64,000 nucleotides of DNA from Lactobacillales bacterium (GTDB taxonomy: Bacteria; Bacillota; Bacilli; Lactobacillales; Streptococcaceae), in assembly GCA_031261175.1 (NCBI GenBank), contig JAISJW010000007.1, forward strand, positions 12,204-76,203, in the 5' to 3' direction. This document shows, one piece after another, positions 11,089-62,909 of this stretch; position 1 is the stretch's first letter, and each line of letters opens with the position of its first letter. The notes under the pieces were generated by a model. It had not been told where the DNA came from. It did no database searches and saw only the letters and a program-made list of their open reading frames with translations. Both the position numbers and the translations under genes were made by a program.

Positions 11089-11150
11089 CGGACTTTTCGC
11101 GTTTTGTGGTCATTTTCATCAAAAAATGTCCACAAAACGCGAAAAGTCCG
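11089..11150. repeat. long hairpin element, family C copy 1
   Basis: 21-bp perfect arms cggacttttcgcgttttgtgg / ccacaaaacgcgaaaagtccg with a 20-nt loop. A near-identical copy lies at 62842..62909. Confidence 0.8.
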
Positions 11151-23045: not shown

Positions 23046-23443
23046 CTAATATAAAGTCTTCAGTTCCTTCTTCGTTATCTCAATCCCCACGCGTTCAAAT
23101 CCGCCAGCCTGCTTATCAAACAAACTCTCAACAACTGAGTCCCGCACAACCGGCGTCCCGTAATGCAGCAGACGATGACAACACGGACAAAGGCATGAAA
23201 TGTTTTCAACCACATCAATCCCGTGCTCAAACAATGGCTGGTAACTAATCGGCACCAGATGATGCGCCTCCATATACGGCTTCCCGCTTGAGTGCGCCAC
23301 AAACGTCTCGTGCCCTTCGTTCACCGCACACTGATAACCCGCTAGAGCAAGTCCCCTCGCTCCGACAAGCGGATTGCGAGCGTAATAACTTTTCAGCCCT
23401 TCGACCTTATCCGCAAACCTATAATCAGTCCGATTTTTTTATT
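23046..23443 (-). pseudogene. 5'-truncated, internally deleted copy of the HNH endonuclease gene at 25039..25764
   Basis: DNA from about 23019 to 23443 aligns nearly base-for-base with about 25004 to 25500. The copy retains the HNH core (EAHHLVP...CLCPCCHRLLH) but lacks the N-terminal ~135 codons. Confidence 0.8.
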
Positions 23444-23474: not shown

Positions 23475-24752
23475 CTAATCAATTAATTCGTAATAAGTGC
23501 TAGGTCCACTACCTACTCTTTTGACTTTCCCTCTTTCAACCAAATTAGCTAATTCACGCTTGACTTTAGCATCATGTAATTCTAGAATTTTGGCAATATC
23601 TGAACGTTTTAATGAACGTTTGCTTAATTCATTAATAATCAGTCTATCAGCAGCAATGTCATCATCGTAACTAATAACTGGCAAAGTTACCTTAATATAA
23701 TTTTCGCTAACTTCAAATTCCGGAAGCTCGAGAAACTCTCGATACTGCTCTTTAACTCTACGAATTCCCGTGGCAAATGTCTCAATTATTTTTATTCGGT
23801 GCAACACACTTGCTAATAGGTTGTTACGAATATCAGATACAGAACCCGCTTTATATTCTTCGGCTGAAATACCGTCAGGAAGTCCTCCCGGAGAGACAAT
23901 TTCTAGTCTATCTGAGAACATAGATATTCTAACATTGCTATTTATATCCCAATTTCGATGCGCTATCGCATTAGCCAACACTTCTTTAAAAGCTATCTCC
24001 GGAATGTGGATCCGTTGTTCTCTAGTATTTGCATTAACTACTTCATAAGGTGCATACCACTTGTTAAACATCTCTTTCGCTTGTTCATATTGCTCTAGAA
24101 TAGAAATTCCAACTAACGTCTTTCTATCCAGGAAAATATCATCGTTATCGCCAAATTTAACTATGTCAATACCAAATTTACGACTACTTATATCTGCTAA
24201 AAGTTCTGCCGTAACGTTATATTCATTTTTAACCAGCAATCCTAGAGTGCGCAAACCTTCATTGGTTAACTTCTCAATTCCCGTTTCTTTCTGCAAATAT
24301 TTTTCTAACAAATTGAACTTGAAATCGCGTTCCGCTACCGGCTTTTCATCGTAGGTGAATCTAGCGCTATGCAAAACCAAACGATTCATTTCGAACGTAT
24401 CAACAGCTACCGTAGTCGTTCCTTGCCTCTGATACACATGATGTCCAAAATAATATGGCTGTTTATCTCCTTTGAACACGTTTAAAATCACTATAGTTTT
24501 ATTTTCATAAATTTCTGAGCGTATTGAAAAAGGAGGGATTGGAGATACTTTATCATTGATAGAATTTGCTATCGATAATTCAAATTTATCAACTCCTCCA
24601 TTGATCCCAACGACCTCACCATCATCTTTAACTCCGAAAATTATTTCTCCACCACCATAATTAGCGAACGCACTTACCGTTTTATAAAAATTATCAGTTT
24701 TTTTCAATTTCAATTCAACAACTTCAGATTCTTTTTTGTTAAACATATTCAC
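23475..24752 (-). CDS. Schlafen/AlbA_2 domain + HATPase_c_4-like + C-terminal wHTH protein (often mis-annotated as RecG-like)
   Basis: N-terminal ESEVVELKLKK...TVSAFANYGGGEIIFGVKDDGEVVGI is AlbA_2-like. The central KEVLANAIAHRNWD...LEIVSPGGLPDG is HATPase_c_4-like. The C-terminal region is wHTH-like. Confidence 0.75.
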   Translation of the reverse strand: MNMFNKKESEVVELKLKKTDNFYKTVSAFANYGGGEIIFGVKDDGEVVGINGGVDKFELSIANSINDKVSPIPPFSIRSEIYENKTIVILNVFKGDKQPYYFGHHVYQRQGTTTVAVDTFEMNRLVLHSARFTYDEKPVAERDFKFNLLEKYLQKETGIEKLTNEGLRTLGLLVKNEYNVTAELLADISSRKFGIDIVKFGDNDDIFLDRKTLVGISILEQYEQAKEMFNKWYAPYEVVNANTREQRIHIPEIAFKEVLANAIAHRNWDINSNVRISMFSDRLEIVSPGGLPDGISAEEYKAGSVSDIRNNLLASVLHRIKIIETFATGIRRVKEQYREFLELPEFEVSENYIKVTLPVISYDDDIAADRLIINELSKRSLKRSDIAKILELHDAKVKRELANLVERGKVKRVGSGPSTYYELID

Positions 24753-24760
24753 CTCATCTT

Positions 24761-24886
24761 ATCGGAACAATAATCGGAACATTATGTTCCGATTAATTTG
24801 CATTCCATATATAATAACATAAACCCCTTTTGTTTTCAAGGCTTCAACTACTACACATAATGTTCCGATACCTTCCAATCGGAACA
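24761..24886. promoter_or_regulatory. array of five ATCGGAACA boxes upstream of the AlbA_2-type gene
   Basis: Forward boxes at 24761..24769, 24773..24781 and 24878..24886. Reverse boxes at 24785..24793 and 24861..24869. Region 24773..24793 is a perfect 21-bp palindrome. Confidence 0.6.
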
Positions 24887-25038
24887 ACATCAGAGTCTTT
24901 CGCTATATTTATATAAATAACATCTTATAATTTCAAAGCATTCAATTCGTTATTTCAAAATAAATCACTTTGGCAAAGCGCTACAAAAAAAGTTTTTTAG
25001 AAAAAGAACCCGCCTTCCGTCGAATCCCTTCCCAAAAT

Positions 25039-25764
25039 CTAATATAAAGTCTTCAGTTCCTTCTTCGTTATCTCAATCCCCACGCGTTCAAACCCATCAA
25101 CCTGCTTATCAAACAATCCCTCGATAACCGAGTCCCGCACAACCGGCGTTCCATAATGCAGCAGGCGATGACAACACGGACAAAGGCATGAAATGTTTTC
25201 AACCACATCAATCCCGTGCTCAAACAATGGCTGGTAACTAATCGGCACCAGGTGATGCGCCTCCATATACGGCTTCCCGCTCGCTCGCGCCACAAACGTC
25301 TCGTGCCCTTCGTTCACCGCACACTGATAACCCGCTAGAGCAAGTCCCCTCGCTCCGACGAGCGGATTGCGAGCGTAATAGCTTTTCAGTCCCTCGACCT
25401 TGCGCACGACCGGCTGCGGCCCTTCGGTCCACCTGATTTCAGAATTCTTGGCAACTAATCCCTGCACCTCATTCTCAAAATCATAATCAGTCCGATCAAA
25501 AATCACTTCGTTACGGCTAGAAATAAATTTAATATAATTGCTGACAGCAGCCGAATACATCCGCTTCGGATCCTTTTCCATCAGCGATTCCATCTTTTTG
25601 ACAACCAAAAGCAACTCGCCAAGCTCATCTAAATCATCAATCTCATACATATCCCGACTGATTTCTTTAAATATTCTAGTCGGTGCCTGAATAGCGTATT
25701 TACGAACAGAACTTTCGGCAAGTCCTTTCAATTTCAAATAGTTTTCAAAATTTTGTTTATTCAT
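25039..25764 (-). CDS. HNH endonuclease with an uncharacterised N-terminal domain
   Basis: C-terminal HNH motif EAHHLVPIS...CLCPCCHRLLHYG. 241 aa. Confidence 0.8.
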   Translation of the reverse strand: MNKQNFENYLKLKGLAESSVRKYAIQAPTRIFKEISRDMYEIDDLDELGELLLVVKKMESLMEKDPKRMYSAAVSNYIKFISSRNEVIFDRTDYDFENEVQGLVAKNSEIRWTEGPQPVVRKVEGLKSYYARNPLVGARGLALAGYQCAVNEGHETFVARASGKPYMEAHHLVPISYQPLFEHGIDVVENISCLCPCCHRLLHYGTPVVRDSVIEGLFDKQVDGFERVGIEITKKELKTLY

Positions 25765-25871: not shown

Positions 25872-27763
25872 TTATTTGATTATTTTGCGCTCTTCATCAA
25901 TGATTTTTATAGCATCTGTTATTTCATCTTCACTATATGCAAGAGCCTTCAACATCTCTTTAATTAATATCTTTTGTCTTGCTTCTATTTTGTCTTTGTT
26001 CCAAGCCTTTTCATCTTTTAAAGTTTTATTTAACCACAATCCATTATTAAAGCCAATGTTACTTACCGTTCCATCTTCCTTAGTTACAACGGCATTTTGT
26101 TTTGACTCGAAAGAACTATTGGCTAGATTTGAATTATAATCTGTCAAAGTTAAATTTCCTATTTTATGTACAACTTCTGCTTGGATTTCACCAGCTTTCT
26201 CTTTATCTTCATCTAAAGCTTTACTCCAGCCGTTAGGCAGTTTATCATCTTGTGGAAGTATGTGTTCTATACTCCATTTCGAACCCTCAATCCATAAATT
26301 TTTAGAATACTCATTAGTATCTGGTTCGTTATTCTCCTCAACTTGGCGCAATAAATAATTAACGGCATTTCTAAATTCTAAATATGCATCACCATTTAAC
26401 GCTTTTGCAACCAGTGTCATATCACTTGATTTCTCTTCTAATTTTTGTTCTACAATTTCAACAATATTATCTGCTTTCAATTGCTTATCTTCAATTTTTT
26501 TTATCAAATCCATAAATAAATCTTCTAACGTATTAGATGCAGGCGAATTAGTAATTGATTTTTTAGCAAAAAACACAATTAATTTATCTAAAATTTTATT
26601 AATAAGTTTTGCATTCATATCAAATGAATCTTTATTTTTCAACAAGCGCATTAACAATATAACAGAAAAAAGCCCTTCAGTCATGCGCAACTTATTAAGT
26701 AATTTGCGCGTATTATCATCTATTAAATCTAAATATTCTTCAGTTGATTCTCCAATTAATATCGAGAATATTTTTGCATTAGTCGATAAATCTTCTAAAA
26801 ATGCGCTTGGAGATTCGTTTTTTATAGCTATGATTTTTTCATATATTGTTATTACGTTTTGTTTTCCTGCTTTGTGTCCCAACGGAAACTCTTGGCTAGA
26901 AGTTTGCCCGCTTCCCACAGCGTGATTATTATATTCTTTACGGAAAGCATCGTAATTGTATCTTAAAAAACGCTCGTGATTTTGTGTTTTTTCTCCCAAA
27001 TAATCCTTTATTGTTTTCCAAATTTCACCAGCATTTTCTACATTTTCTTCTTTTTTTTCCACCTCGGAAATTACAATGTTTTTCACTAAATCAGTTATCG
27101 TTAAAGGCTCTCCTCTGTAATTAATAGCACCGAATAACAAACCCGCATCTGCAACGCTAGCTACATTGATATCTATTAATACTAAAGAATTTACTTTACG
27201 TAAAAGTTCCCATATTTTTTCATTGTCATCAGAAATATAACTTTCAATCGATTTCTGATAAAACGCAAATGCAGTATGCATTCTTCTGTTTTTAATATTA
27301 GGTATTGATTCTGTTCCTAGCGTATTCAGACCGTTTTCTTTTAATAAAATTTGCCATGAAATATCATTATATTCTTCCGCTTGCGGACTAATTACAATTG
27401 ACTCTAACGTTGGATCATTGCGCATTAACCTATTTTGCAATCCAGCGTATTCTTCGGTCAACGTTCTATCATCCGCATTAGGGACTAACCCTTTATCTTT
27501 GATTTTATTTAAAATAGCCAATAAAAAATACTGGTTGTAATTAGTCTTTGTTGGCCATCAATTATTTCGAAAACTTTATCATCTTTTGTTTTTTTTGTAA
27601 TTACAGATCCTATAAAATATTCATAATCATTGTCTGTTATATCCTTAAATAAATCTTCCTGATTTTTTTTAGTCCAAGAATAGGGTCTTTGGTAAACTGG
27701 AATCTTATAACGTTTATCCGTTAAAAATTCTTTAATAGTAAATCTTTTTGGCGTAATGTCCAT
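25872..27763 (-). pseudogene. GmrSD-type (DUF262 + DUF1524) type IV restriction enzyme gene, frameshifted
   Basis: N-fragment 27509..27763 carries DUF262 motifs (KIPVYQRPYSW, IIDGQQRL). C-fragment 25872..27521 carries a DUF1524/His-Me motif (WSIEHILPQ...HKIGNLTLTDYNSN). The frames differ, and the junction lies at a homopolymer run near 27523..27528. Confidence 0.75.
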
Positions 27764-27796: not shown

Positions 27797-29242
27797 TTAT
27801 ATAAATAAATTTTTAATTTGCTTGTATATGTATTTCTTGTTAATCCACCATGCTTGTTTTGTCATATAAGTATCAGAATGTTCTTCTCTTACTGTTTCCG
27901 GAAGGTTTTTCCATTTTATTTTCGATGGAAGTTCATCGCTATGAGGTCCTTCAACATACGATGTTTGTGCGGCAGATACTTTGCTAAATAAAATATTTGT
28001 TTTCGATGAATTTATAAAATTAGTTGTTCTTTTTCTAGATTTTTCTGTTTCTATATAAGTTATTTCAACGCCGTTTTTTATTTTATAGACAGTATCTTCC
28101 CAAACGGCTCGAACACTTCCCTCTATATCTTCGTCAGGAACACAAAAGAATTTGGCTCCTTTAAGATATTGTTCTTCGCCTTGCTTCTCGAATACAATAA
28201 TTAGGAACTTAGTGTCTTGTAAAAATTCTCTTAGTTCACTTGTCTCCCAAGTTTCTCGTGATGTTTCATGGAATTTGTAATTGAATAATTTAAATTCTTC
28301 TTTTAACGCTGTTTTCCCTTTTTCAACAACTACCGTTTTAGGCTTTATATTAGCTTTTTGGAATTCTTGAACAACCTCCAAATCATTATCCACATCAAGA
28401 ATGTTCTTTATTATTTGTTTTGCTATCTCAGGATTAGTTGCCTTTGTATCATTTTTTATAGAAAAGCGTTTTGCTAAATCGTCTCTTGATTGCCCAGAAA
28501 ATTTATTTATTTTTTCCAAAATAAATTCTTCTAGTGATTTTGTTTTCAGTTGTTTCGAATCTTTAATAACTGACTCACTAGGTTCGTCTCCCAATACGTA
28601 AGTATTATACAAATAAGTCATGTATCCACTTTTTAAAGAATAAGCTCTTTGTTTTGCTTTTTTATCAGAAAAAGGCTGATTTCTTACGGTATCTGAATTA
28701 GCTCCTTTAGTGCACGGAGATAAATATGTTGTCAAACTTTCTGAAAGCTCATGAGCTTTACCTTGTTTTACATAGTCATCAATGATTTCCCAGTCTTTCT
28801 TTATTATTTCGAAATCGACCTCGTTTTTCATCATTTCGTATAAAGCGACGTTTTTTATTACATACTCATCTTTTGTTTTGCATCGTTCCCATTCATAGAA
28901 AGCCAGCTCGAGAGTTCCATTTTTATAAAGAAAGTGGCTCGATTCAAATTTCTCATTTACTATTTCCATATAGTTTATGATATTAAGAACAAGACGTTCT
29001 TTCGCACTATATTTTCCATTTTTATTCTTTTTTATCGGAGTGGCTTTTAATTCAACCCCCACTTCTGTTATATCAGGCGCACTTTCGTTATCCGGAGCTT
29101 TTCCGAACCACGCCTCCCAGGCGGCCCCCACTCCGTGCTTTCCGCCTGCAAGTGTTTTTCCGCCATTAATTTCTTTGACGGTCTTATCTACAGCTTCCAG
29201 AGCTCTTTGGTGAACTTCTGCCTTTGATTTGAATTTATCCAT
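27797..29242 (-). CDS. Sau3AI-family type II restriction endonuclease (GATC-type, MutH/Sau3AI fold)
   Basis: 481 aa. Long stretches match my memory of Sau3AI: GVELKATPIKKNKNGKYSAKERLVLNIINY, KAHELSESLTTYLSPCTKGANS, AKQRAYSLKSGYMT. Confidence 0.85.
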   Translation of the reverse strand: MDKFKSKAEVHQRALEAVDKTVKEINGGKTLAGGKHGVGAAWEAWFGKAPDNESAPDITEVGVELKATPIKKNKNGKYSAKERLVLNIINYMEIVNEKFESSHFLYKNGTLELAFYEWERCKTKDEYVIKNVALYEMMKNEVDFEIIKKDWEIIDDYVKQGKAHELSESLTTYLSPCTKGANSDTVRNQPFSDKKAKQRAYSLKSGYMTYLYNTYVLGDEPSESVIKDSKQLKTKSLEEFILEKINKFSGQSRDDLAKRFSIKNDTKATNPEIAKQIIKNILDVDNDLEVVQEFQKANIKPKTVVVEKGKTALKEEFKLFNYKFHETSRETWETSELREFLQDTKFLIIVFEKQGEEQYLKGAKFFCVPDEDIEGSVRAVWEDTVYKIKNGVEITYIETEKSRKRTTNFINSSKTNILFSKVSAAQTSYVEGPHSDELPSKIKWKNLPETVREEHSDTYMTKQAWWINKKYIYKQIKNLFI

Positions 29243-29251
29243 ATAAGCACC

Positions 29252-30562
29252 TTATCCATTTTCTATGCTGTACAACTCATCACCAATCCGTTTTACGATT
29301 TGCGTCACCAACGCGTTACCCATGAAGAACATGCGCATTCTATCGCTGACTTCAACTTCTTTCCCATCTCTGGTTTTCTTCACTTTTGTCCAATCTTTCG
29401 GGAAACTCTGCAATTGTTCCGCCTCTATTGGCGTTAAAATTCGGTACCGACCATCTGTTTTCAAAAAATGTGTCGATCTATTGATTGACCCTTCCGAAGT
29501 CAGCATCGTTCTGCCTGGAAGATGCAATTCATCTACTGGTGACATTCCACCTTCTGCATAAATCCACTCGTGACCTTCTTTTGTCACTTTCGGAATTTTT
29601 TTAGCTGCGCGAAGATATTGGAACTTCTCGATTTTTTCTTTATCTGAAATATAATATTTCTCGTCAATTTCTTCTTTAGACTGAATGATTTCGGCAAGAG
29701 GAATCGGGCTTTCATCCCCAACTGGCTCCGTATCAATAGTGTAGTATTTTCCGAAACGCATAACACCAGAATTCCAAACCTTACCGCTAAAGTTGTCAGA
29801 TATTTCTACCATATCATCATCTAACTCATAGGCCGCATGACGATTTTTAACTGCTGTTTCTTTCACAGGAAATTGACTAGCGAATAAACCTTCTTTGAAT
29901 ATATACTCATCATATTTATCTGCTTGGAATGCTTTTTTTGATTTAGCCGTATCATTGAATTGCTTGTTAATTTTTTTTGCAAATTCGGTATCATTTCGAT
30001 AAACAAAAATAAATACACGTCTTCTTCGTTGTGCACATCCATAATCAGCAGCGTTAATAACGCGCCATTCAACTGAATAATTTAGTTTGTTGAATTCTGA
30101 CAACATGATTGCGAAATCTCGTCCGCGTTGTGTAGATGGTGACTTCAACAAGCGATCGACATTTTCTAAAACTAAATATTTAGGTTTTATGTTACTTACA
30201 GCTCTAGTAATCTCCCAAAATAGAACACCCTTTTTACCTGTAATACCTGTCTCGTTAGTTAAACTACGCGCCACCGAATAATCTTGACAAGGGAAACCAC
30301 CGACAATCAAATCAGCATCCATTTTTTTGAATTCTTTATCCGTAATTTCAGCAATGCTCTTATTAATATTTTCACTATCTGAAAAATGATAATCATAAAC
30401 TTCAAATGCATCTTGCGCTTTTTTCCCTGGCTCAAACTGGTTGGCCCACTTCGTTTTATAAAACTCCGGATGGCTTGCTTCAAACCCAACCCTGAATCCT
30501 CCGACACCTGCAAATAACTCTAATACTTTTAATTCTTTACTCACAATATTTACGAGCTCCAA
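29252..30562 (-). CDS. DNA (cytosine-5)-methyltransferase, partner of the Sau3AI-like enzyme
   Basis: C5-MTase motifs LELFAGVGGFR (I), GGFPCQDYS (IV), ENV (VI), QRRRRVF (VIII), GNA (X). The start may be GTG 30544 rather than TTG 30562. Confidence 0.9.
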   Translation of the reverse strand: MELVNIVSKELKVLELFAGVGGFRVGFEASHPEFYKTKWANQFEPGKKAQDAFEVYDYHFSDSENINKSIAEITDKEFKKMDADLIVGGFPCQDYSVARSLTNETGITGKKGVLFWEITRAVSNIKPKYLVLENVDRLLKSPSTQRGRDFAIMLSEFNKLNYSVEWRVINAADYGCAQRRRRVFIFVYRNDTEFAKKINKQFNDTAKSKKAFQADKYDEYIFKEGLFASQFPVKETAVKNRHAAYELDDDMVEISDNFSGKVWNSGVMRFGKYYTIDTEPVGDESPIPLAEIIQSKEEIDEKYYISDKEKIEKFQYLRAAKKIPKVTKEGHEWIYAEGGMSPVDELHLPGRTMLTSEGSINRSTHFLKTDGRYRILTPIEAEQLQSFPKDWTKVKKTRDGKEVEVSDRMRMFFMGNALVTQIVKRIGDELYSIENG

Positions 30563-30577
30563 AACTCAAGAGTTTTG
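30560..30577. promoter_or_regulatory. 18-bp palindrome in the leader of the methyltransferase operon
   Basis: caaaactc-aa-gagttttg. Read in the sense of the minus-strand gene it is caaaactcttgagttttg, identical to 30715..30732. It lies just downstream of a TGgTATAAT box (minus strand, + strand coordinates about 30604..30612). Confidence 0.6.
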
Positions 30578-30669
30578 AAGCTTCCTTTCTGAAATTTAAG
30601 AATATTATACCATAAAAGCGGCTTTCTATCTACCTTTTTCACCTTTGAACATCGCAGATCAATAGATTT

Positions 30670-30705
30670 AAAAGCCCAGAAAACTTGCCATTTTCTGGGC
30701 TTTTT
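30670..30705. other. terminator-like hairpin inside a divergent promoter region
   Basis: aaaa gcccagaaaa cttgcca ttttctgggc ttttt. It is a 10-bp stem flanked by an A-run and a T-run. No annotated gene ends here on either strand. Confidence 0.5.
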
Positions 30706-30714
30706 AGCTATACC

Positions 30715-30732
30715 CAAAACTCTTGAGTTTTG
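30715..30732. promoter_or_regulatory. 18-bp palindrome in the leader of the NUDIX/type IV operon
   Basis: caaaactcttgagttttg, 13 nt upstream of ATG 30746. Confidence 0.6.
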
Positions 30733-30745
30733 AACCCTTGAAAAT

Positions 30746-31147
30746 ATGGCTAAAAAACTAATCAAAGTCGTTGGTGCAATCATCATAAAAGACGATGAAA
30801 TCCTTTGCGCACAGCGGGGTTATGAAAAGTCGCTACCAGGTCTTTGGGAATTTCCAGGTGGAAAAATCGAGCAAAACGAAACTCCTCGAGAAGCTCTGAA
30901 AAGAGAACTTGTCGAGGAGTTACATATCGATGTTCAACCGGACGAACAACCGTTTGAAACGACTACCTATGAATATGATTTTGGCATCATCGAACTGACA
31001 ACTTTTATCTGTGAAATCACCGACAATCAACAGCCTATTTTGACCGAGCATATCGCCATCAAATGGCTCAAACCATCAGAACTAAACGAACTCGATTGGG
31101 CGCCAGCCGACTTGCCCGCAGTTGAGAAATTAGGAGGCCTCCAATGA
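30746..31147 (+). CDS. MutT/NudG-type NUDIX (deoxy)nucleoside-triphosphate pyrophosphohydrolase
   Basis: NUDIX box GLWEFPGGKIEQNETPREALKRELVEELHI. 133 aa. The stop overlaps the start of the next gene (ATGA). Confidence 0.85.
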   Translation: MAKKLIKVVGAIIIKDDEILCAQRGYEKSLPGLWEFPGGKIEQNETPREALKRELVEELHIDVQPDEQPFETTTYEYDFGIIELTTFICEITDNQQPILTEHIAIKWLKPSELNELDWAPADLPAVEKLGGLQ

Positions 31148-33945
31148 GCGAACATCTTGAACTTGCGCTAAGAAAAGGGTTCATCAACTACAATCAGGAT
31201 GCGTTTGACGTTTATGAGCCGAAGTTGATTACGAACGATCAGGAAAATAGAATTTTCACGCTGAACGCTTTGCAGGAACAGCTCGACACCTGTAAATCTT
31301 TTTTTATTTCGGTTGCATTCGTTACTCAGTCGGGGCTAAACGGGCTCAAAAGTCACTTCAGCGATTTGGCGTCGAACGGTGTGCGCGGGCGGCTTTTGAC
31401 TAGCAACTATCTCGCGTTTAACTCGCCGGAGGTTTTTCGCGACTTGCTGAAGATTCCGAATCTCGATGTTCGCATCACCGAGGCGGCTGGTTTTCATGTT
31501 AAGGGTTATCTGTTCGAGCAGGCCGACTATGAAACGATGATTATCGGCAGTTCTAATCTGACAATGAATGCGCTCAAAACGAATGTCGAGTGGAATGTGA
31601 AGCTGACTAGTTTCGAGAATGGCGATTTGCTTCGTTCTACTAAGAACGCTCTCGAAACGATGTGGGATGCCGCTAAGCCGTTGAACGAAGATTGGATTAA
31701 CATCTATAAAATCAGCTGGAAGCCTAAGTTCTCTAACGTTATTTACGAGCCCGAGTCCGTTTATTCGACCATTCGGCCTAACTCTATGCAATTGAAGGCA
31801 CTTGCCGGGCTGCAACAACTTCGCAAAGAAGGCAAGTCAAAAGCGCTCCTTATCTCCGCTACCGGGACCGGAAAGACTTATCTTTCCGCTTTTGAAGTTC
31901 GGCAAGTTAATCCCGAAAGGATGCTGTTTATTGTCCATCGCGAGCAGATTTTAAAGGCAGCGATGACTACTTTTCAAAACGTCATTGGCGGTTATGATTC
32001 GGATTTTGGTCTGTATACCGGAACTTCGAAAGATCTTAATGCGAAATATTTATTCGCTACAATCCAATCGATTTCTAAGGATGACGCACTTTCAGAATTT
32101 GCTCGTAATCACTTCGATTACATTATTATCGATGAAGTTCACAAAGCTGGTGCTGCATCTTATTTGAAAGTTCTTGATTATTTCGAACCATCGTTTTTAA
32201 TGGGGATGACAGCGACTCCTGAGAGAACCGATGATTTCAATATTTTTGAATTATTCGATTACAACATAGCTTATGAAATTCGCTTGCAAGAAGCGATGGA
32301 AGCTGACCTACTATCACCTTTTCATTATTTTGGTGTTAGCGATTTTGTCCGCGATGGATTAACGGTTGATGAAACCTCTAAATTACAATACTTAGTCGCT
32401 GATGAACGCGTTGATTATTTGCTCAAAAAAATTAAATATTACGGTGTCTCTGGCTCGAAAGTTCGCGGGTTAGTTTTCTGCCCTAGCATCGAGGTCGCTA
32501 TGGAAATGAGTTCTGCCTTTAATGATCGCGGTTTTAGATCGGTCGCTCTTACGGGTGCCGCCTCAATTGCCCAACGGGAAGAAGATGTCGCCCGGCTAGA
32601 AACTGGGCCGCTCGATTATATTTTTACGGTCGATATTTTCAATGAAGGCATCGATATTCCGAGTGTGAATCAAGTTATTCTGATGCGCAATACAGAATCT
32701 AGCATTATTTTTATTCAGCAACTAGGGCGCGGTTTGCGCAAACATTCTTCCAAGGAATTTGTGACGATAATTGATTTTATCGGTGCCTATAAAAATAACT
32801 ATATGATTCCGGTTGCGCTGACTGGCGATAATTCTGGGAATAAGGATAATTTGCGACACGGAACTTTTGACACTAATTATATCAGCGGCGTTTCCTCTAT
32901 TAATTTCGAGGCGGTGGCTAAAGAGCGCGTGTTCGAGGCTATTAATAACGCTAAGCTAGATGATGCTAAGCGTTTGCGCGAAGCTTATCATGCTTTAAAA
33001 AATCGTTTGAATCGCAAGCCTATGCTCATTGATTTTCTCGAACAAGGTTCTGTTGATCCATATCTAATTGCAAATAAATATGATTCTTATTATTCGTTTC
33101 TCGTTAAAATAAATGAGGCCGAATCCGTTTTAAATATTTCTGCTCAAAAACTTTTAAAATTCGCTTCTCGAGAGTTATTGCCTGGTCTTCGGCGGGATGA
33201 ACTGGATTTATTAGTTGATTTGTTAGCAGGAAAATCAGTTTCTGCCGCTTCACTTGCCCACACTAATGTCCTTTCCGTTTTAGACTGTTCTTGGTTTAGC
33301 GGAAGCGATAAAAAGACGTACGAGGGTTGTGCGCTTATAAAAGTAGATAATGAAATTATTAATCTATCTGATGATTTTCGAAGAGCTTTAGATAACGATT
33401 ATTTTGCACTGTTATTTAGCGATTTACTTGCCACGGGTCTTGAAAAAGCGAAGAAATATTCAGCTGCACGTTTGACTCGCTATGCTAAATATACGCGGAA
33501 GGATGCCATTAAATTGCTGGGGTGGAACGAGCAGATGGTGGCGCAAAATATCGGTGGTTACGCGTGTAACGAAAATGATTTTGCTATTTTTATTACGCTA
33601 CATAAGGGTGATGATTTCGCTGGCGCACAGATGACATACGAGGATGAATTGATTTCGCAGAACACTTTGAAATGGTTCACTAAGTCGCCTAGGACGATTA
33701 ATTCTCCCGAAGTTGTCAAACTTTTAAACTACTATAGCGATTACGGTATTCACGTATTTATGCAAAAAAACGATGATGAAGGTGGCATTCAATTTTATTA
33801 TTTAGGCGAGGTTTACCCGGATAAAAATTCTATTTTAGAGGTTGAAAAGCCTGTAAAAGATGGCACTCTGAAACCTGTCGTTGAAATGAATTTGCATTTC
33901 AAAGAGCCTATCGATTATAAATTATTTAAATATTTAACCGATTAA
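31144..33945 (+). CDS. SauUSI-like enzyme: PLD-family nuclease + SF2 helicase + DUF3427-like C-terminal domain (putative modification-dependent type IV restriction enzyme)
   Basis: PLD HxK motif HVKGYLF...IIGSSNLT. Helicase motifs SATGTGKT, IIDEVH, MTATPER, QQLGRGLR. The C-terminus (GWNEQMVAQNIGGY...WFTKSPR...FYYLGEV) resembles DUF3427. Confidence 0.75.
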   Translation: MSEHLELALRKGFINYNQDAFDVYEPKLITNDQENRIFTLNALQEQLDTCKSFFISVAFVTQSGLNGLKSHFSDLASNGVRGRLLTSNYLAFNSPEVFRDLLKIPNLDVRITEAAGFHVKGYLFEQADYETMIIGSSNLTMNALKTNVEWNVKLTSFENGDLLRSTKNALETMWDAAKPLNEDWINIYKISWKPKFSNVIYEPESVYSTIRPNSMQLKALAGLQQLRKEGKSKALLISATGTGKTYLSAFEVRQVNPERMLFIVHREQILKAAMTTFQNVIGGYDSDFGLYTGTSKDLNAKYLFATIQSISKDDALSEFARNHFDYIIIDEVHKAGAASYLKVLDYFEPSFLMGMTATPERTDDFNIFELFDYNIAYEIRLQEAMEADLLSPFHYFGVSDFVRDGLTVDETSKLQYLVADERVDYLLKKIKYYGVSGSKVRGLVFCPSIEVAMEMSSAFNDRGFRSVALTGAASIAQREEDVARLETGPLDYIFTVDIFNEGIDIPSVNQVILMRNTESSIIFIQQLGRGLRKHSSKEFVTIIDFIGAYKNNYMIPVALTGDNSGNKDNLRHGTFDTNYISGVSSINFEAVAKERVFEAINNAKLDDAKRLREAYHALKNRLNRKPMLIDFLEQGSVDPYLIANKYDSYYSFLVKINEAESVLNISAQKLLKFASRELLPGLRRDELDLLVDLLAGKSVSAASLAHTNVLSVLDCSWFSGSDKKTYEGCALIKVDNEIINLSDDFRRALDNDYFALLFSDLLATGLEKAKKYSAARLTRYAKYTRKDAIKLLGWNEQMVAQNIGGYACNENDFAIFITLHKGDDFAGAQMTYEDELISQNTLKWFTKSPRTINSPEVVKLLNYYSDYGIHVFMQKNDDEGGIQFYYLGEVYPDKNSILEVEKPVKDGTLKPVVEMNLHFKEPIDYKLFKYLTD

Positions 33946-34035
33946 AAAGGGCTATGCTGTGTGATTTTTAGGTCGCATAGCATAGCTTTTCGGGTTTAAT
34001 TGCCCGGGTTTCGCTCTTTTCGAACAAAAGAAAAA

Positions 34036-34063
34036 CACCTCACCGGATCCGGGCGAGGTGTTT
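34036..34063 (+). terminator. weak terminator-like hairpin after the helicase gene
   Basis: cacctc-a-ccgg-at-ccgg-gc-gaggtg followed by only ttt. Confidence 0.35.
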
Positions 34064-34135
34064 ACGTGTGTAAACCCTGTACTAGCAGGGGAGACCTACG
34101 ACTTGCGCAGGAAGCAGGTTGAACTTAATCAACGA

Positions 34136-34151
34136 ATATATATATATATAT
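34136..34151. repeat. (AT)8 microsatellite
   Basis: atatatatatatatat, read directly from the sequence. Confidence 0.9.
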
Positions 34152-34313
34152 CTATTCTTCTAGGCCGATGGCCTTTCTTTGCAAACGGTTAGACTCACTT
34201 GCTACGTACATAAGGAACGTTCTGAATTCTTCCGGAGTAGCATTTTTGGATAATTCTCCATAACTTCTATTATATTTTTCAGCGATTGCTTCTGCTTTTT
34301 CTTTTTCAGTCAT
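34152..34313 (-). CDS. 53-aa hypothetical protein overlapping the end of the zeta-like gene
   Basis: My own translation: MTEKEKAEAIAEKYNRSYGELSKNATPEEFRTFLMYVASESNRLQRKAIGLEE. Strong RBS ggagga 8 nt upstream. The ATG overlaps the upstream stop (AATGACTGA). Below the ORF-track size cutoff. Confidence 0.4.
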   Translation of the reverse strand: MTEKEKAEAIAEKYNRSYGELSKNATPEEFRTFLMYVASESNRLQRKAIGLEE

Positions 34314-34973
34314 TTAGTTTATCCTCCAATTCTTCTCTAGTATATTCATTTGGTAATGCTGATTTGATATTTATTTCATTTTTAATTATACCATAAATAT
34401 TATTTTGATAGTCCTTGAAAACTATATTAACTTCAATTTCTTTATCAAATTTTTCTTTCGCCCTAATAATATTTTCACGCGCTTTAAAATATGAATTGAT
34501 AAATCTTTCTTTCGGCACGAATCTTCCCTCGACAATTTCGCGCGCTCTAGTAAACTCCCAAGCTATGTATGGATCCTGATAGATGTAGTAAACCGTTACA
34601 TCATACCCCCTTTTCAAAGCCCTTTCAATATTTTGTTGCGCCCTTTCCAAAGCAAATGTCCCGTCTAATATAAATGAATATCCGCTCTTTAACACGTGAT
34701 CAAGTGTAATATCAACCAATCTCGCTGCACCTCTTTGGAAATCGTTTGAATTACTCCCGTCGTATCCTGGGAATTTACTCCTGAATACATCGGCATCTAT
34801 ACGCATAAATTATCAATTAATTCTGTCAGCGCAATTGCCGTTTCCGTTTTTCCCGACCCTGGGCTACCTGCCATAAAAATTGCTACTTTGTCCTCCTTGA
34901 CATCATTTCCTTCTATAACTTCCTCGATAAATTTTTGCTTGTTCTTTTTCGCAAACTCTAAACTTTCATCCAT
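34306..34973 (-). pseudogene. zeta-toxin-family P-loop kinase gene, split by a frameshift
   Basis: The N-fragment (about 34797..34973, 58 codons by my reading) contains Walker A MAGSPGSGKT. The C-fragment 34306..34806 (RIDADVFRSKFPGYDG...) is in another frame. Coordinates of the N-fragment are +/-1. Confidence 0.6.
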
Positions 34974-35521
34974 TAATTTTTTCTCCTTCTCTTTTTTATC
35001 CGCCCCACCGTCGACTTCCCGACCTTAAAATCTTTAACTGCTTGGGCAATTGAGTACCCTCCCGCGGCTAAACGGCGTATCATTTCCGCCTCTTTTTCTG
35101 GGCTCAATTTGCGCGGGCGACCTTCGCGGAAATTGGGATTGTGAAGCCGTGCGTATAACTTGCCCGCTTGGGTTCGCTCGATGATCATGTCGCGCTCCAT
35201 TTCGGCAATCGAGAGAAGCGTCCGGAGGAAGAACTTGCCCAGATAGCTCGATTCGATGATACCGAGATTCAGGACGTTGAAAGTGACGCCAGACTCGAGG
35301 AGCGGCTCGATGAGGTTGAGCGCCAGACGGTCGAGCTTGGTCACAACGAGCATATCGCCTGGTCGAATGCGTTTAATCAATTTATTCAACTCCTTGCGAT
35401 CTGTCGTCGTCCCGGTCACCTTCTCCTTGAAGACCTTACCGACGTGCGCCTTTTTCAATTCTGCGATTTGCGTCGACAAATCCTGTTGAGTCGTCGAAAC
35501 TCGTGCGTATCCATATATCAC
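34973..35521 (-). mobile_element. small serine recombinase (resolvase/invertase family)
   Basis: N-terminus (M)IYGYARVSTTQQDL with the catalytic Ser, and a C-terminal HTH. GTG start. The region after DRL looks shorter than usual. Confidence 0.85.
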
Positions 35522-37641: not shown

Positions 37642-38046
37642 CTAATAAATTTTTTTGAAAATTTTTTGGGCAATTGCGTAAACCGCACACCAGCCGTAAA
37701 GAACCATCACACCTGCATCCGATAAAGCAACCTGCGTGCTAGCTGCAAAAATTGATATTAACCCAAGCACCGCGGCCATAACCAAAGTTGCTGCGACATA
37801 AGAACGTTGCGTAATAAAAACATTACGTTCGTCGAGTTTTATTACTGCATATTTTTTCATTAATTCTGGATTTTTGAAAATGCGAATTTGGCTGATTGTT
37901 ACAACCAATGCAGCTGCGAAAATTGCCCCCGATAGCGAAGCTTGTGTGATTGTTTCTAGTTTGAATAGTCCGACTAATCCGATAACTGTGAATATCGACC
38001 CGATTACAACGTTCCATTTTACTCGTTGTTCTATTTTGTTGTTCAT
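37642..38046 (-). CDS. small integral membrane protein (DUF2178-like)
   Basis: Four hydrophobic segments. The start overlaps the stop of the XRE gene. Confidence 0.6.
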   Translation of the reverse strand: MNNKIEQRVKWNVVIGSIFTVIGLVGLFKLETITQASLSGAIFAAALVVTISQIRIFKNPELMKKYAVIKLDERNVFITQRSYVAATLVMAAVLGLISIFAASTQVALSDAGVMVLYGWCAVYAIAQKIFKKIY

Positions 38047-38252
38047 AACGATTCATCCTCCCCATTAAAAATAAAAATGTCTTCGATTGTTTGTTCAAAA
38101 TACTCGGCAATTTTGTGCGCTAAAATTAGCGATGCATTGTACTTTCCCTTTTCGAGCGAAATGATTGTCTGCCTCGTGACCCCTAGCGCGTCCGCGAAAT
38201 CACTCTGGCTGACCTTCTTCGCCGTTCGCAACTCATGAATTTTATTTTCCAT
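38043..38252 (-). CDS. XRE-family HTH transcriptional regulator (69 aa)
   Basis: LRTAKKVSQSDFADALGVTRQTIISLEKGKYNASLILAHKIAEYF is a canonical Cro/CI HTH. Confidence 0.85.
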   Translation of the reverse strand: MENKIHELRTAKKVSQSDFADALGVTRQTIISLEKGKYNASLILAHKIAEYFEQTIEDIFIFNGEDESL

Positions 38253-38310
38253 CTCGTGCGACCTCCTTAAGTTTATGTATAGTTAACTTTACAATCAATA
38301 GTATAGCACG

Positions 38311-38330
38311 CTTTACATATCAATGTAAAG
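38311..38330. promoter_or_regulatory. candidate XRE operator
   Basis: Palindrome ctttaca-tatcaa-tgtaaag, with extra TTTACA boxes on both sides. It overlaps a TTTACA-18-TATACT promoter on the minus strand. Confidence 0.4.
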
Positions 38331-38359
38331 CGCATTTTACATTTTCTTAAAATTTTTTC

Positions 38360-45409: not shown

Positions 45410-45474
45410 TCGCATCCAAGCCGTTTTTTAACTAATTCAAGACCTGAATTAGTTAAAAAACGGCTTGGATGCGA
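45410..45474. repeat. 30-bp perfect-stem hairpin abutting a stop codon
   Basis: tcgcatccaagccgttttttaactaattca - agacc - tgaattagttaaaaaacggcttggatgcga. It lies directly 3' of the stop of the gene at 45475..46455. Confidence 0.8.
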
Positions 45475-50016: not shown

Positions 50017-50089
50017 AATTTTGCGAGTATAAACTTGCGGTTTTCGCCTTAATTTTAAACAAAAAGCTGGAGTTTATACTCGCAAAATT
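50017..50089. repeat. 19-bp perfect inverted repeat separated by 35 bp
   Basis: aattttgcgagtataaact ... agtttatactcgcaaaatt. Confidence 0.75.
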
Positions 50090-57108: not shown

Positions 57109-57150
57109 ATTATCAATTATAGCAAAAATTTCGGGGTTTAAAAAGCCCCA

Positions 57151-57217
57151 TGTGCTTTTAAGGCGTTTTTTACGCAATCCAGACCTCGAAATGCATAAAA
57201 AACGCCTTAAAAGCACA
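57151..57217. repeat. 21-bp perfect-stem hairpin between two minus-strand genes
   Basis: tgtgcttttaaggcgtttttt ... aaaaaacgccttaaaagcaca. Confidence 0.75.
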
Positions 57218-57227
57218 TAGGCTCATT

Positions 57228-62841: not shown

Positions 62842-62909
62842 TATCGGACTTTTCGCGTTTTGTGGTCTTTTTTCACGGAAAATGACCACAAAACGCGAAA
62901 AGTCCGATA
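62842..62909. repeat. long hairpin element, family C copy 2 (probable bidirectional terminator)
   Basis: 26-bp arms tatcggacttttcgcgttttgtggtc / gaccacaaaacgcgaaaagtccgata, between convergent genes. Confidence 0.8.

Follow-up and report, generated by a model that had tools for sequence, protein, structure and literature searches.

Two divergent defense operons, separated by a region with two identical palindromes, lie within the 64-kb stretch of DNA analyzed here (the window). The left operon, on the minus strand, encodes a C5 cytosine DNA methyltransferase (MTase; 29252..30544, 430 aa from a GTG start; Pfam PF00145; PADLOC MTase_II PDLC03329) and a Sau3AI/MutH-type type II restriction endonuclease (REase; 27797..29242; Pfam MutH; PADLOC REase_II PDLC03553, matched over its full length). 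Judging solely by this Sau3AI-type partner, the MTase would produce GAT5mC. As the original prediction had it, no C-protein-like ORF lies beside the restriction-modification (R-M) operon, and with no small HTH controller gene in or next to it, the operon does not fall into the C-protein-controlled class; the nearest XRE gene is 7.5 kb away and has a different operator of its own.

The right operon, on the plus strand, consists of genes for a NUDIX hydrolase (PDC-S07; 30746..31147) and a SauUSI-like predicted type IV restriction enzyme (31144..33945), the start of the latter overlapping the NUDIX stop. The SauUSI-like ORF (933 aa) is intact, with Pfam PLD nuclease, SF2 helicase and DUF3427 domains, and matches PADLOC mREase_IV PDLC03658 over its full length (E 6.7e-266); the NUDIX ORF is also intact. 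A linked upstream NUDIX gene has been described for SauUSI (PMC3141236), and this set of domains and genes is that of the SauUSI-type class. The gene assignments originally made for both operons thus hold by Pfam and PADLOC. The conflict between a writer of 5mC and a 5mC-dependent cutter is real in principle, but published SauUSI prefers S5mCNGS (PMC3141236), so GAT5mC would not match. The two operons also differ in composition, with a GC content of 0.33-0.38 in the R-M block versus 0.41-0.44 in the NUDIX operon.

The first palindrome (copy 1, 30560..30577) reads CAAAACTCAAGAGTTTTG on the plus strand and CAAAACTCTTGAGTTTTG on the minus strand, which is the MTase sense strand; the second (copy 2, 30715..30732) reads CAAAACTCTTGAGTTTTG on the plus strand. 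Read in the sense direction of its neighboring gene, each copy is therefore the same 18-mer, as had been noted from the start, and the two form an 18-nt inverted repeat with 100% complementarity and 137 nt between the arms. Each 18-mer is dyad symmetric in an 8-2-8 arrangement with a nonpalindromic center, AA in copy 1 versus TT in copy 2 on the plus strand. The palindromes end 15 nt short of the MTase start codon and 13 nt short of the NUDIX ATG. Beyond the 18-mer, similarity ends sharply in both orientations, except that three flanking bases (C...AA) agree in the direct sense. The central TT kept in the sense orientation was expected to form a CUUG loop on a 7-bp stem, and folding predicts this structure at -5.2 kcal/mol. 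The dissimilar flanks rule out that a longer piece of the leader was duplicated, whether inverted or direct; the two fallbacks offered with the original prediction, RNA hairpin and inverted duplication, are in part right.

The pair is rare. No further copy with up to 3 mismatches occurs elsewhere in the window, where 0.06 matches are expected, and none of 100 shuffled window controls had four or more matches. A window search for CAAAAC-N(0-12)-GTTTTG found the two sites and nothing else, and no copy occurs in a further 13 kb of flanking DNA, so that the pair is the only one within the ~77 kb of the genome examined. In 759 kb of other fetched loci, only 2 perfect inverted pairs reach 16 bp or more with a gap of 60-500 bp. 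Among species-representative genomes (596 Gb), 47 scattered exact matches were found, roughly the chance level, none of them in related Firmicutes or similar contexts; a small repeat family with the same arms in Methylococcales MAGs was judged unrelated. Viral contigs gave 0 matches, plasmids no meaningful match, and Rfam no family for the palindrome region. The objection that the 18-mer is a common dispersed repeat can thus be set aside.

An alignment (MAFFT) with nine homologous loci, together with folding, places copy 1 at the core of a near-perfect 28-nt palindrome, AGCTTCAAAACTCTTGAGTTTTGGAGCT (30555..30582, minus strand, 13-2-13), which is a clean insertion separating the MTase start codon from the ancestral Shine-Dalgarno sequence (SD). 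The ancestral SD, AGAAAGGAAG (30581..30590, minus strand), contains GAAAGGA, conserved among the homologs. The closest homologous MTase leaders (9 of 9) run SD, ~10 nt, start codon; here the 28-nt insertion has pushed the SD out to 38 nt from the GTG. The hairpin predicted for the leader has a 12-bp stem (-13.6 kcal/mol, z -4.3) with GGAG inside its 3' arm, and the sole imperfect pair of the 28-nt palindrome is G.U in the sense RNA and C-A in the antisense. Read from the sequence, a TTG in the hairpin loop starts a 10-codon upstream ORF that stops 5 nt beyond the MTase GTG.

The palindromes bound a segment of 137 bp (30578..30714, GC 0.34), a candidate invertible segment, which contains a promoter, the ancestral SD, strong and located at the promoter-distal end, and, at the opposite end, a hairpin terminator. 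The promoter is of the sigma-70 type with an extended -10 element (TAGATA-17-TG-n-TATAAT; 30604..30632, minus strand) and is directed at the MTase; it accounts for the TGgTATAAT box that had been placed upstream of copy 1, found in the scan as TAGATA-17-TGgTATAAT at 30632..30604. By consensus scan it is the sole promoter-like site on either strand within 30300-31000. It reads outward through copy 1 and lines up with the -10 boxes at homologous loci. Behind it, and directly before copy 2 and the NUDIX gene, lies a strong hairpin (30670..30704) with a 14-bp stem, a GCCCAG/CTGGGC core and flanking A and T runs, which folds at -20.9/-21.5 kcal/mol (z about -5.5) and is terminator-like in both directions. 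This hairpin went uncalled in the consensus terminator scan, because its T run is partly within the maximal stem.

The NUDIX gene has no recognizable SD and no promoter-like site between this hairpin and its start, in contrast to all 10 homologous NUDIX loci examined (SD present at 10 of 10). Likewise rejected are a plus-strand promoter for the NUDIX gene and a small RNA that ends at the hairpin, with only sub-threshold matches by eye and none in the promoter scan. The original prediction placed a palindrome in the leaders of both operons; this stands for copy 1 but not demonstrably for copy 2, since no promoter-like site separates the hairpin from the NUDIX start. Copy 2 forms just the 7-bp stem and lies precisely where the composition changes from one operon to the other.

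Homologous loci lack the element. The 18-mer occurs at none of 80 homologous MTase loci, where the best matches have 6-9 mismatches, and at none of 10 homologous NUDIX loci, ruling out a conserved leader motif of M.Sau3AI-like or NUDIX/SauUSI operons. Nor does any of the 80 MTase loci carry an inverted pair of this kind close to the promoter. The only other assembly of this region (Logan SRR14710919, L001) is identical to the window and in the same orientation, with its contig passing unbroken through both repeats; no flipped copy is seen in the two existing assemblies.

A gene for a small serine recombinase (34973..35521, minus strand), with a resolvase/invertase domain and HTH_7 and with Gin as its best solved relative, lies 4.2 kb from the palindromes in the same island. 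It is the only recombinase gene among the window ORFs scanned, which extend to 55.7 kb of the 64 kb. A 6-aa deletion found in no close homolog has cost the enzyme the conserved catalytic Arg (now Leu) of its LDRxARN motif, which is kept in 117 of 117 close homologs, and the enzyme is probably catalytically impaired. Two of its closest relatives also adjoin R-M systems, and its neighbors here are decayed, with the zeta toxin and GmrSD split. The res-like sites of its nearest homologs (Latilactobacillus plasmid, TGTCA-type; L144) bear no resemblance to the 18-mer.

What could a pair of such sites around a single promoter be for? We tentatively propose that the 18-mers are the core sites of a promoter cassette bounded by inverted repeats, either an invertible switch or a recently frozen relic of one, with the R-M operon ON and the type IV operon OFF as the candidate current setting. 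In the present orientation, the promoter and SD of the segment would serve the MTase-REase operon, leaving the NUDIX/SauUSI-like operon behind the terminator with neither signal. Recombination between the palindromes would flip the segment, bring promoter and SD to the NUDIX gene, place the terminator in front of the MTase gene, and create the junctions TTACGAGCTCCAAAACTCAAGAGTTTTGGGTATAGCTAAAAAGCCC and AAATTTCAGAAAGGAAGCTTCAAAACTCTTGAGTTTTGAACCCTTGAAAATATGG. The asymmetric AA/TT center would lend polarity to an otherwise symmetric site, as in hix/gix. Since each site would be a palindrome between SD and start codon, it could also fold as an mRNA hairpin that partly restores their proximity. 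The repeat, the 28-nt insertion, the promoter and SD within the segment and their lack at NUDIX are shown here; a recombination role for the sites, inversion in the past or at present, and the enzyme responsible are inferred. A fuller version, in which the cassette, now or until very recently, alternates one promoter and SD between two operons that are never coexpressed, with the site doubling as an SD-bridging hairpin to either start, is rather doubtful.

Several features speak for a switch. Copy 1 is inserted between SD and start, the very position needed for a flip to deliver SD as well as promoter, and in a hypothetical flipped leader a 9-bp hairpin would still form, its end 11 nt short of the NUDIX ATG. 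The segment has the build of an inverton, a short stretch (137 bp) between perfect 18-bp inverted repeats with, by consensus and folding, an outward promoter inside and a hairpin at the far end, and the palindromes with their AA/TT center (13-2-13 at copy 1) have the layout of serine-recombinase crossover sites. The missing NUDIX signals and the Gin/Pin-like recombinase gene in the same island also count in its favor. Against a switch, both assemblies show one orientation, the sites are out of register with the Din consensus, and the 80 MTase loci offer no counterpart. In addition, the effective SD-start distance for NUDIX after a flip, ~14 nt, would be long, the sole recombinase gene in the scanned ORFs has lost its conserved Arg, and a cell toggling between a writer of 5mC and a nuclease dependent on it could poison itself. 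Given the GC contrast between the operons, a switch would have evolved after their recent juxtaposition.

A rearrangement scar is a somewhat unlikely explanation. An illegitimate join of the low-GC R-M block to the NUDIX operon would have removed the NUDIX promoter and SD, and during repair a template switch would have copied 18-21 nt of the MTase-leader palindrome; the type IV operon would merely be silenced and the palindrome pair functionless. The position of copy 2 at the GC junction, the abrupt end of identity beyond the 18-mer, the loss of the NUDIX signals, the decay of the island (split GmrSD and zeta toxin, recombinase with a deletion) and the single orientation in two assemblies all agree with it, and loss of a type IV enzyme after gain of a 5mC MTase is biologically sensible. 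However, it requires two separate rare events and leaves unexplained the origin of the 28-nt palindrome, the SD-like distance of copy 2 from the NUDIX ATG and the intactness of the full-length NUDIX and SauUSI-like ORFs.

An operator pair for a dimeric DNA-binding protein comes closest to the original prediction, and we consider it unlikely. The two 8-2-8 sites, centered ~+29 and -127 from the transcription start predicted near 30597, bracket the MTase promoter, and a repressor bound to both might loop out 155 bp, as in gal, and control the R-M operon and perhaps NUDIX; in one variant the binder is the damaged recombinase itself, which retains HTH_7. Perfect dyad symmetry and the placement of two copies around the sole promoter favor such a pair. 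As double-stranded DNA, both sites are the same object rotated, which a symmetric dimer would see identically, and the three flanking bases shared in the direct sense hint that the sites are constrained in ways that a simple inverted copy would not be. The spacing of 155 bp, however, amounts to 14.8 helical turns and is off-phase, and no regulator gene adjoins either operon. The idea that one trans-acting factor binds an operator in both leaders finds no direct support, because copy 2 has no promoter to control, copy 1 sits between SD and start codon, an odd and costly place for an operator, the genes of the proposed binders carry other upstream motifs, and the motif is absent from the 80 MTase and 10 NUDIX homologous loci. 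The XRE gene (38043..38252) is preceded by a different repeated motif, TGTAAAATGCGCTTTACA, and the AlbA_2/wHTH gene (23475..24752) by five copies of ATCGGAAC, and both products were rejected as binders of the 18-mer. What survives of the proposed co-control is the physical coupling of the two operons through the element.

Less probable again is an element acting at the RNA level only, an mRNA hairpin near the ribosome-binding site. The 12-bp hairpin of the MTase leader would return the ancestral SD to 10 nt from the GTG and tune translation, and the NUDIX copy would act similarly on its own transcript. With an active promoter, transcription of copy 1 is certain, and the stability of its fold, the imperfect pair that is G.U in the sense RNA, and the SD that would otherwise be stranded far from the start are as this explanation expects, as are the sense orientation of both copies and their distances of 13-15 nt from the start codons. 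Copy 2, however, has no upstream promoter or SD and a weak stem, Rfam offers no family, the lack of conservation in any homolog leaves no covariation to examine, and two identical copies bracketing a promoter go unexplained. A MITE carrying a promoter is rejected: the ends show no target-site duplication, no other copy exists in ~77 kb, and the interior, with its -10, spacing and SD, aligns collinearly with the leaders of homologous MTase genes and so is native rather than foreign.

If the cassette does flip, it would be the first described switch to make a methylating R-M system and a methylation-dependent enzyme mutually exclusive, showing how a cell carries both immunities without attacking itself. 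It would also represent a rare recombination site between ribosome-binding site and start codon, with transcription and translation signals moving together. Even without flipping, the locus documents a 5mC-dependent nuclease operon silenced on the arrival of a 5mC MTase, through loss of promoter and SD and placement of a terminator in front, and it shows a compact ribosome-binding site tolerating a palindromic insertion of 28 nt.

Among known systems, the proposed promoter cassette can be compared first with Hin and Gin. Crossover sites of the Din family are 12-2-12, with a center that is usually AA, a best-conserved inner AAACC|GGTTT and variable outer parts (PMC3241671 Table 3; PMC5175349). 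The locus shares with hix/gix two inverted quasi-palindromic sites with an identical, nonpalindromic central dinucleotide (AA/TT on the plus strand), a short mixed inner core flanked by A-tracts, variable outer positions and a Gin-like recombinase gene nearby; as with Hin, the promoter within the segment reads out through one site. It differs in its site, 8-2-8 (13-2-13 at copy 1) instead of 12-2-12, in a segment of 137 bp versus 1-4 kb, in having no known enhancer or Fis, and in a recombinase gene that is not adjacent and encodes an enzyme without the conserved Arg; nor has inversion been observed here. The locus does not match the 26-bp Din site TTC---AAAC- -A -GTTT---GAA: its A-tract is 1 bp out of register, it has no outer TTC, and copy 2 lacks symmetry in its outer half-sites.

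Other known counterparts are the short promoter invertons of Bacteroides, acted on by the Mpi serine recombinase, and the cwpV and flgB switches of Clostridioides difficile, invertible segments of 150-230 bp between short inverted repeats that carry a promoter or create a terminator, resulting in ON/OFF phase variation of one downstream operon, mostly for surface structures. The short segment, the short inverted repeats and the promoter and terminator inside are alike (for general background on short promoter invertons, see PMC9881135 and PMC10403206). Here, in contrast, two divergent defense operons would be toggled and the SD would be carried along, with the recombination site between SD and start. 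Phase-variable R-M systems are known from type I hsdS "epigenetic invertons" (PMC7672463) and from B. fragilis (PMC7641763). These systems likewise vary restriction-modification activity by site-specific inversion, but what they shuffle is hsdS specificity genes, not a promoter that serves a type II R-M operon in one orientation and a type IV enzyme in the other.

Repression loops of the gal/lac type are formed by two operators bracketing a promoter. The identical palindromes upstream and downstream of the MTase promoter, ~150 bp apart, resemble them; no repressor has been identified here, and the downstream site falls between SD and start codon. In phage T4 genes 38 and 25, a stable hairpin folds away the excess sequence between SD and start so that their spacing becomes functional, much as the hairpin here may bridge them, except that this one arose from a recent insertion of 28 nt and its core recurs 155 bp away. 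The right operon matches the NUDIX-SauUSI pair (PMC3141236) in its PLD, helicase and DUF3427 domains and in the linked upstream NUDIX gene; it differs from that pair in having lost its own promoter and SD.

The two operons are divergent. On the minus strand, the genes for a C5 cytosine methyltransferase (MTase; 29252-30544, GTG start) and a MutH/Sau3AI-type restriction endonuclease (REase; 27797-29242) form the left operon; on the plus strand, a NUDIX hydrolase gene (30746-31147) overlaps that of a 933-aa PLD-helicase-DUF3427 protein (31144-33945), which is SauUSI-like because its match to PADLOC type IV model PDLC03658 runs the entire length. Linkage of NUDIX and SauUSI genes has already been published (PMC3141236). 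The original prediction called these genes rightly and placed an 18-bp palindrome correctly on each side, at 30560-30577 before the MTase (copy 1; plus strand, CAAAACTCAAGAGTTTTG) and at 30715-30732 before the NUDIX gene (copy 2; plus strand, CAAAACTCTTGAGTTTTG), and this element does link the two operons physically. With 137 bp between them, the copies are a perfect inverted repeat of 18 bp, and each is an 8-2-8 palindrome whose sole asymmetry is the central AA/TT. No further copy occurs in the window with up to 3 mismatches (0.06 expected), and the looser pattern CAAAAC-N(0-12)-GTTTTG matches only these two sites. Compared in both orientations, the flanks show no similarity beyond the 18-mers except three bases (C...AA) agreeing in the direct sense. 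Elsewhere, 759 kb of other fetched sequence yielded 2 perfect inverted pairs with arms of 16 bp or more and a gap of 60 to 500 bp, so such pairs are rare.

Both strands of 30300-31000 hold a single promoter-like site, TAGATA-17-TG-n-TATAAT (30632..30604, minus strand), located within the 137-bp segment (30578-30714) and directed toward the MTase. At the opposite end of the segment, a hairpin with a 14-bp stem (30670-30704; -20.9/-21.5 kcal/mol, z of about -5.5) has a GC core flanked by A and T runs; we read it from its predicted fold as a bidirectional terminator, one that a simple terminator scan did not call. Copy 2 follows 10 nt past it, and a further 13 nt lead to the NUDIX ATG; neither a promoter nor a Shine-Dalgarno (SD) sequence was found between hairpin and ATG. 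A recognizable SD is present in 10 of 10 homologous NUDIX loci fetched, and the six closest also have a TATAAT box upstream.

For comparison, 80 metagenomic loci encoding MTase homologs were fetched; the 18-mer is absent from all of them (best match, 6 to 9 mismatches), as is any similar inverted pair. A compact leader (TGnTATAAT, 14-16 nt, GAAAGGA, ~10 nt, start codon) is common to nine of the closest, and the window leader is collinear with it in its -10 box, 14-nt spacer, SD, and last 10 nt; thus, the segment's promoter and SD belong natively to the MTase and keep their native orientation. The one departure is that 28 nt have been cleanly inserted between GAAAGGA and CGTAAATATT-GTG, so copy 1 came as a palindromic insertion in a working ribosome-binding site. 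The insertion, AGCTTCAAAACTCTTGAGTTTTGGAGCT, consists of copy 1 lengthened into a 13-2-13 palindrome that includes one G.U pair, and its predicted 12-bp RNA hairpin (-13.6 kcal/mol), whose 3' arm supplies GGAG, would return the SD to 10 nt from the GTG. Most homologous M.Sau3AI-like loci (L055-L134) have a -35 box, TTGATC, 17-18 nt from TATAAT; since it holds GATC, the presumed recognition site of the R-M system, methylation-sensitive autoregulation is suggested. The window retains TTGATC at 30657-30662, a distance of 47 nt from the -10, with TAGATA as the working -35. The loop TTG of each palindrome also opens a short ORF (30537-30569, minus strand; 30723-30761, plus strand), MSFGARKYCE stopping 5 nt beyond the MTase GTG and MSFEPLKIWLKN 13 nt beyond the NUDIX ATG; these statistically unremarkable ORFs could permit translational coupling.

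What, then, is the pair for? The most likely reading, itself tentative, is the geometry of an invertible promoter, because the palindromes bracket exactly a predicted promoter-plus-SD module, with one flanking operon (MTase-REase) putatively served by it and the other (NUDIX) lying behind the putative terminator without either signal. Inversion would give the NUDIX gene a promoter followed by AGAAAGGAAG-CTT-palindrome-13 nt-ATG, a leader whose predicted 9-bp hairpin would end 11 nt before the ATG, and the MTase would face the terminator. The 18-mers match the layout of recombinase core sites, having dyad-symmetric arms and an asymmetric center identical in both inverted copies. However, they do not fit in register the consensus of Din-family sites, which are 12-2-12 with a mostly AA center, a conserved inner AAACC/GGTTT, and variable outer parts (PMC3241671, PMC5175349).

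A small serine recombinase, with Gin as its best solved relative, is encoded 4.2 kb from the element (34973-35521). It carries LDRLALN and a 6-residue gap (in-frame deletion, Arg-to-Leu), a lesion unique against 117 close homologs, all 117 of which have LDR[LF]ARN[TS] at constant spacing. Because LDRLALN replaces this motif, the protein has lost the Arg of LDRxARN, which we take, from Tn3 and gamma-delta resolvase, to be part of the catalytic set; since its HTH is intact, it may be an inactive enzyme or a remnant that binds DNA. Among its closest relatives, two adjoin R-M systems, of Eco57I type (L143) and of DpnII type on 12-kb contigs (L144-L147). No second recombinase was found among the scanned window ORFs, which lie before 55.7 kb. 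No flipped copy was seen in the one other assembly with the locus, Logan SRR14710919, which is 100% identical in the same orientation. Also counting against inversion, the effective SD-to-ATG distance afterwards would be long (~14 nt), and a cell that toggles between an enzyme writing 5-methylcytosine (5mC) and one whose cutting depends on 5mC might harm itself. The published SauUSI preference, S5mCNGS (PMC3141236), would not include GAT5mC, the MTase product inferred from the Sau3AI-type partner REase. The lack of a flip, the misfit in register, the lack of homologous pairs, the recombinase lesion without another recombinase, the long spacing, and the possible self-toxicity are why we rate the invertible promoter no higher.

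Possible, though with lower probability, is a rearrangement scar, in which 18-21 nt were copied from a template to give copy 2 as the R-M block and the NUDIX operon were joined, and the type IV operon was left silenced. Copy 2 falls precisely where base composition changes between these blocks, GC content passing from 0.33-0.38 (R-M) to 0.41-0.44 (NUDIX/SauUSI-like; core genes, 0.47-0.49), and the surrounding island is in decay; but two rare events are needed, and the 28-nt insertion is left unexplained. The island (~23-38.4 kb), flanked by era/HD and fusB-like/sufB, is a partly decayed defense mosaic: the type IV GmrSD is split into ORFs of 84 and 549 aa, a zeta toxin gene into ORFs of 58 and 166 aa, and a 92-aa HNH fragment duplicates part of a 241-aa HNH gene (25039-25764). 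With GmrSD split and the SauUSI-like operon intact but promoterless, both type IV enzymes look switched off beside the 5mC MTase. Nearest relatives of both operons, from Carnobacteriaceae, Enterococcus, and related taxa, reach only ~70% identity, and the organism is a rare Lactobacillales member whose core proteins are singletons at 90% identity.

Broken island genes lie at 25872-27763, 34306-34973, and 23046-23324. A 72-bp repeat (23337-23408 and 25330-25401; 94% identity) falls at the point where the Logan contig stops and thus probably breaks short-read assemblies. Between the SauUSI-like gene and the convergent zeta/recombinase block downstream of it, 33946-34155 holds a pair of terminator-like hairpins together with a (TA)8-9 run. 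Other long perfect hairpins (6895-6959, 45410-45474, 11089-11150, 62842-62909, 57150-57218, and 50017-50089; two sites with 30-bp arms and 5-nt loops, and a palindromic family, CGGACTTTTCGCGTTTTGTGG, common to the sites at 11.1 and 62.8 kb) are possible terminators or REP-like elements.

An operator pair or repression loop is doubtful. It accounts for the symmetry and the bracketing, but no regulator was identified, copy 2 has no promoter to regulate, and the XRE and AlbA_2 proteins, both proposed binders, have other motifs in front of the genes that encode them. Control of both leaders by one factor, as the original prediction favored, has no direct support. Upstream of the AlbA_2/HATPase_c_4 gene, ATCGGAAC/GTTCCGAT occurs five times in 24760-24890, with a 15-bp inverted pair (24773-24787/24855-24869) among the copies, likely an autoregulatory array unrelated to the 18-mer, and the 69-aa XRE gene has in its promoter region (38309-38342) a 20-bp palindrome, ATGTAAAATGCGCTTTACAT, with an extra ATGTAAAGCG half-site, probably its own operator. 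An RNA hairpin alone is the least probable explanation: judged from folding, an effect on MTase mRNA is physically almost certain, but the second copy, weak and apparently untranscribed, is left unexplained. The alternatives first offered, RNA hairpin and inverted duplication, were apt; the readings are not fully exclusive, and the RNA effect on the MTase holds whichever of them is right.

In Methylococcales MAGs (L004, L016, L017, L024, L027, L030, L034, and L044), unrelated gammaproteobacteria, a dispersed/tandem repeat family has same-arm hairpins (CAAAACTC-NN-GAGTTTTG, centers TT and AC), probably a REP-like element that converged on these arms by chance. Precedents exist for invertible promoters and for phase-variable R-M systems (PMC9881135, PMC7672463, PMC7641763), and the literature searched contained no cassette swapping a promoter and SD between type II R-M and type IV operons. 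The 137-bp cassette is a candidate variation on these known systems.
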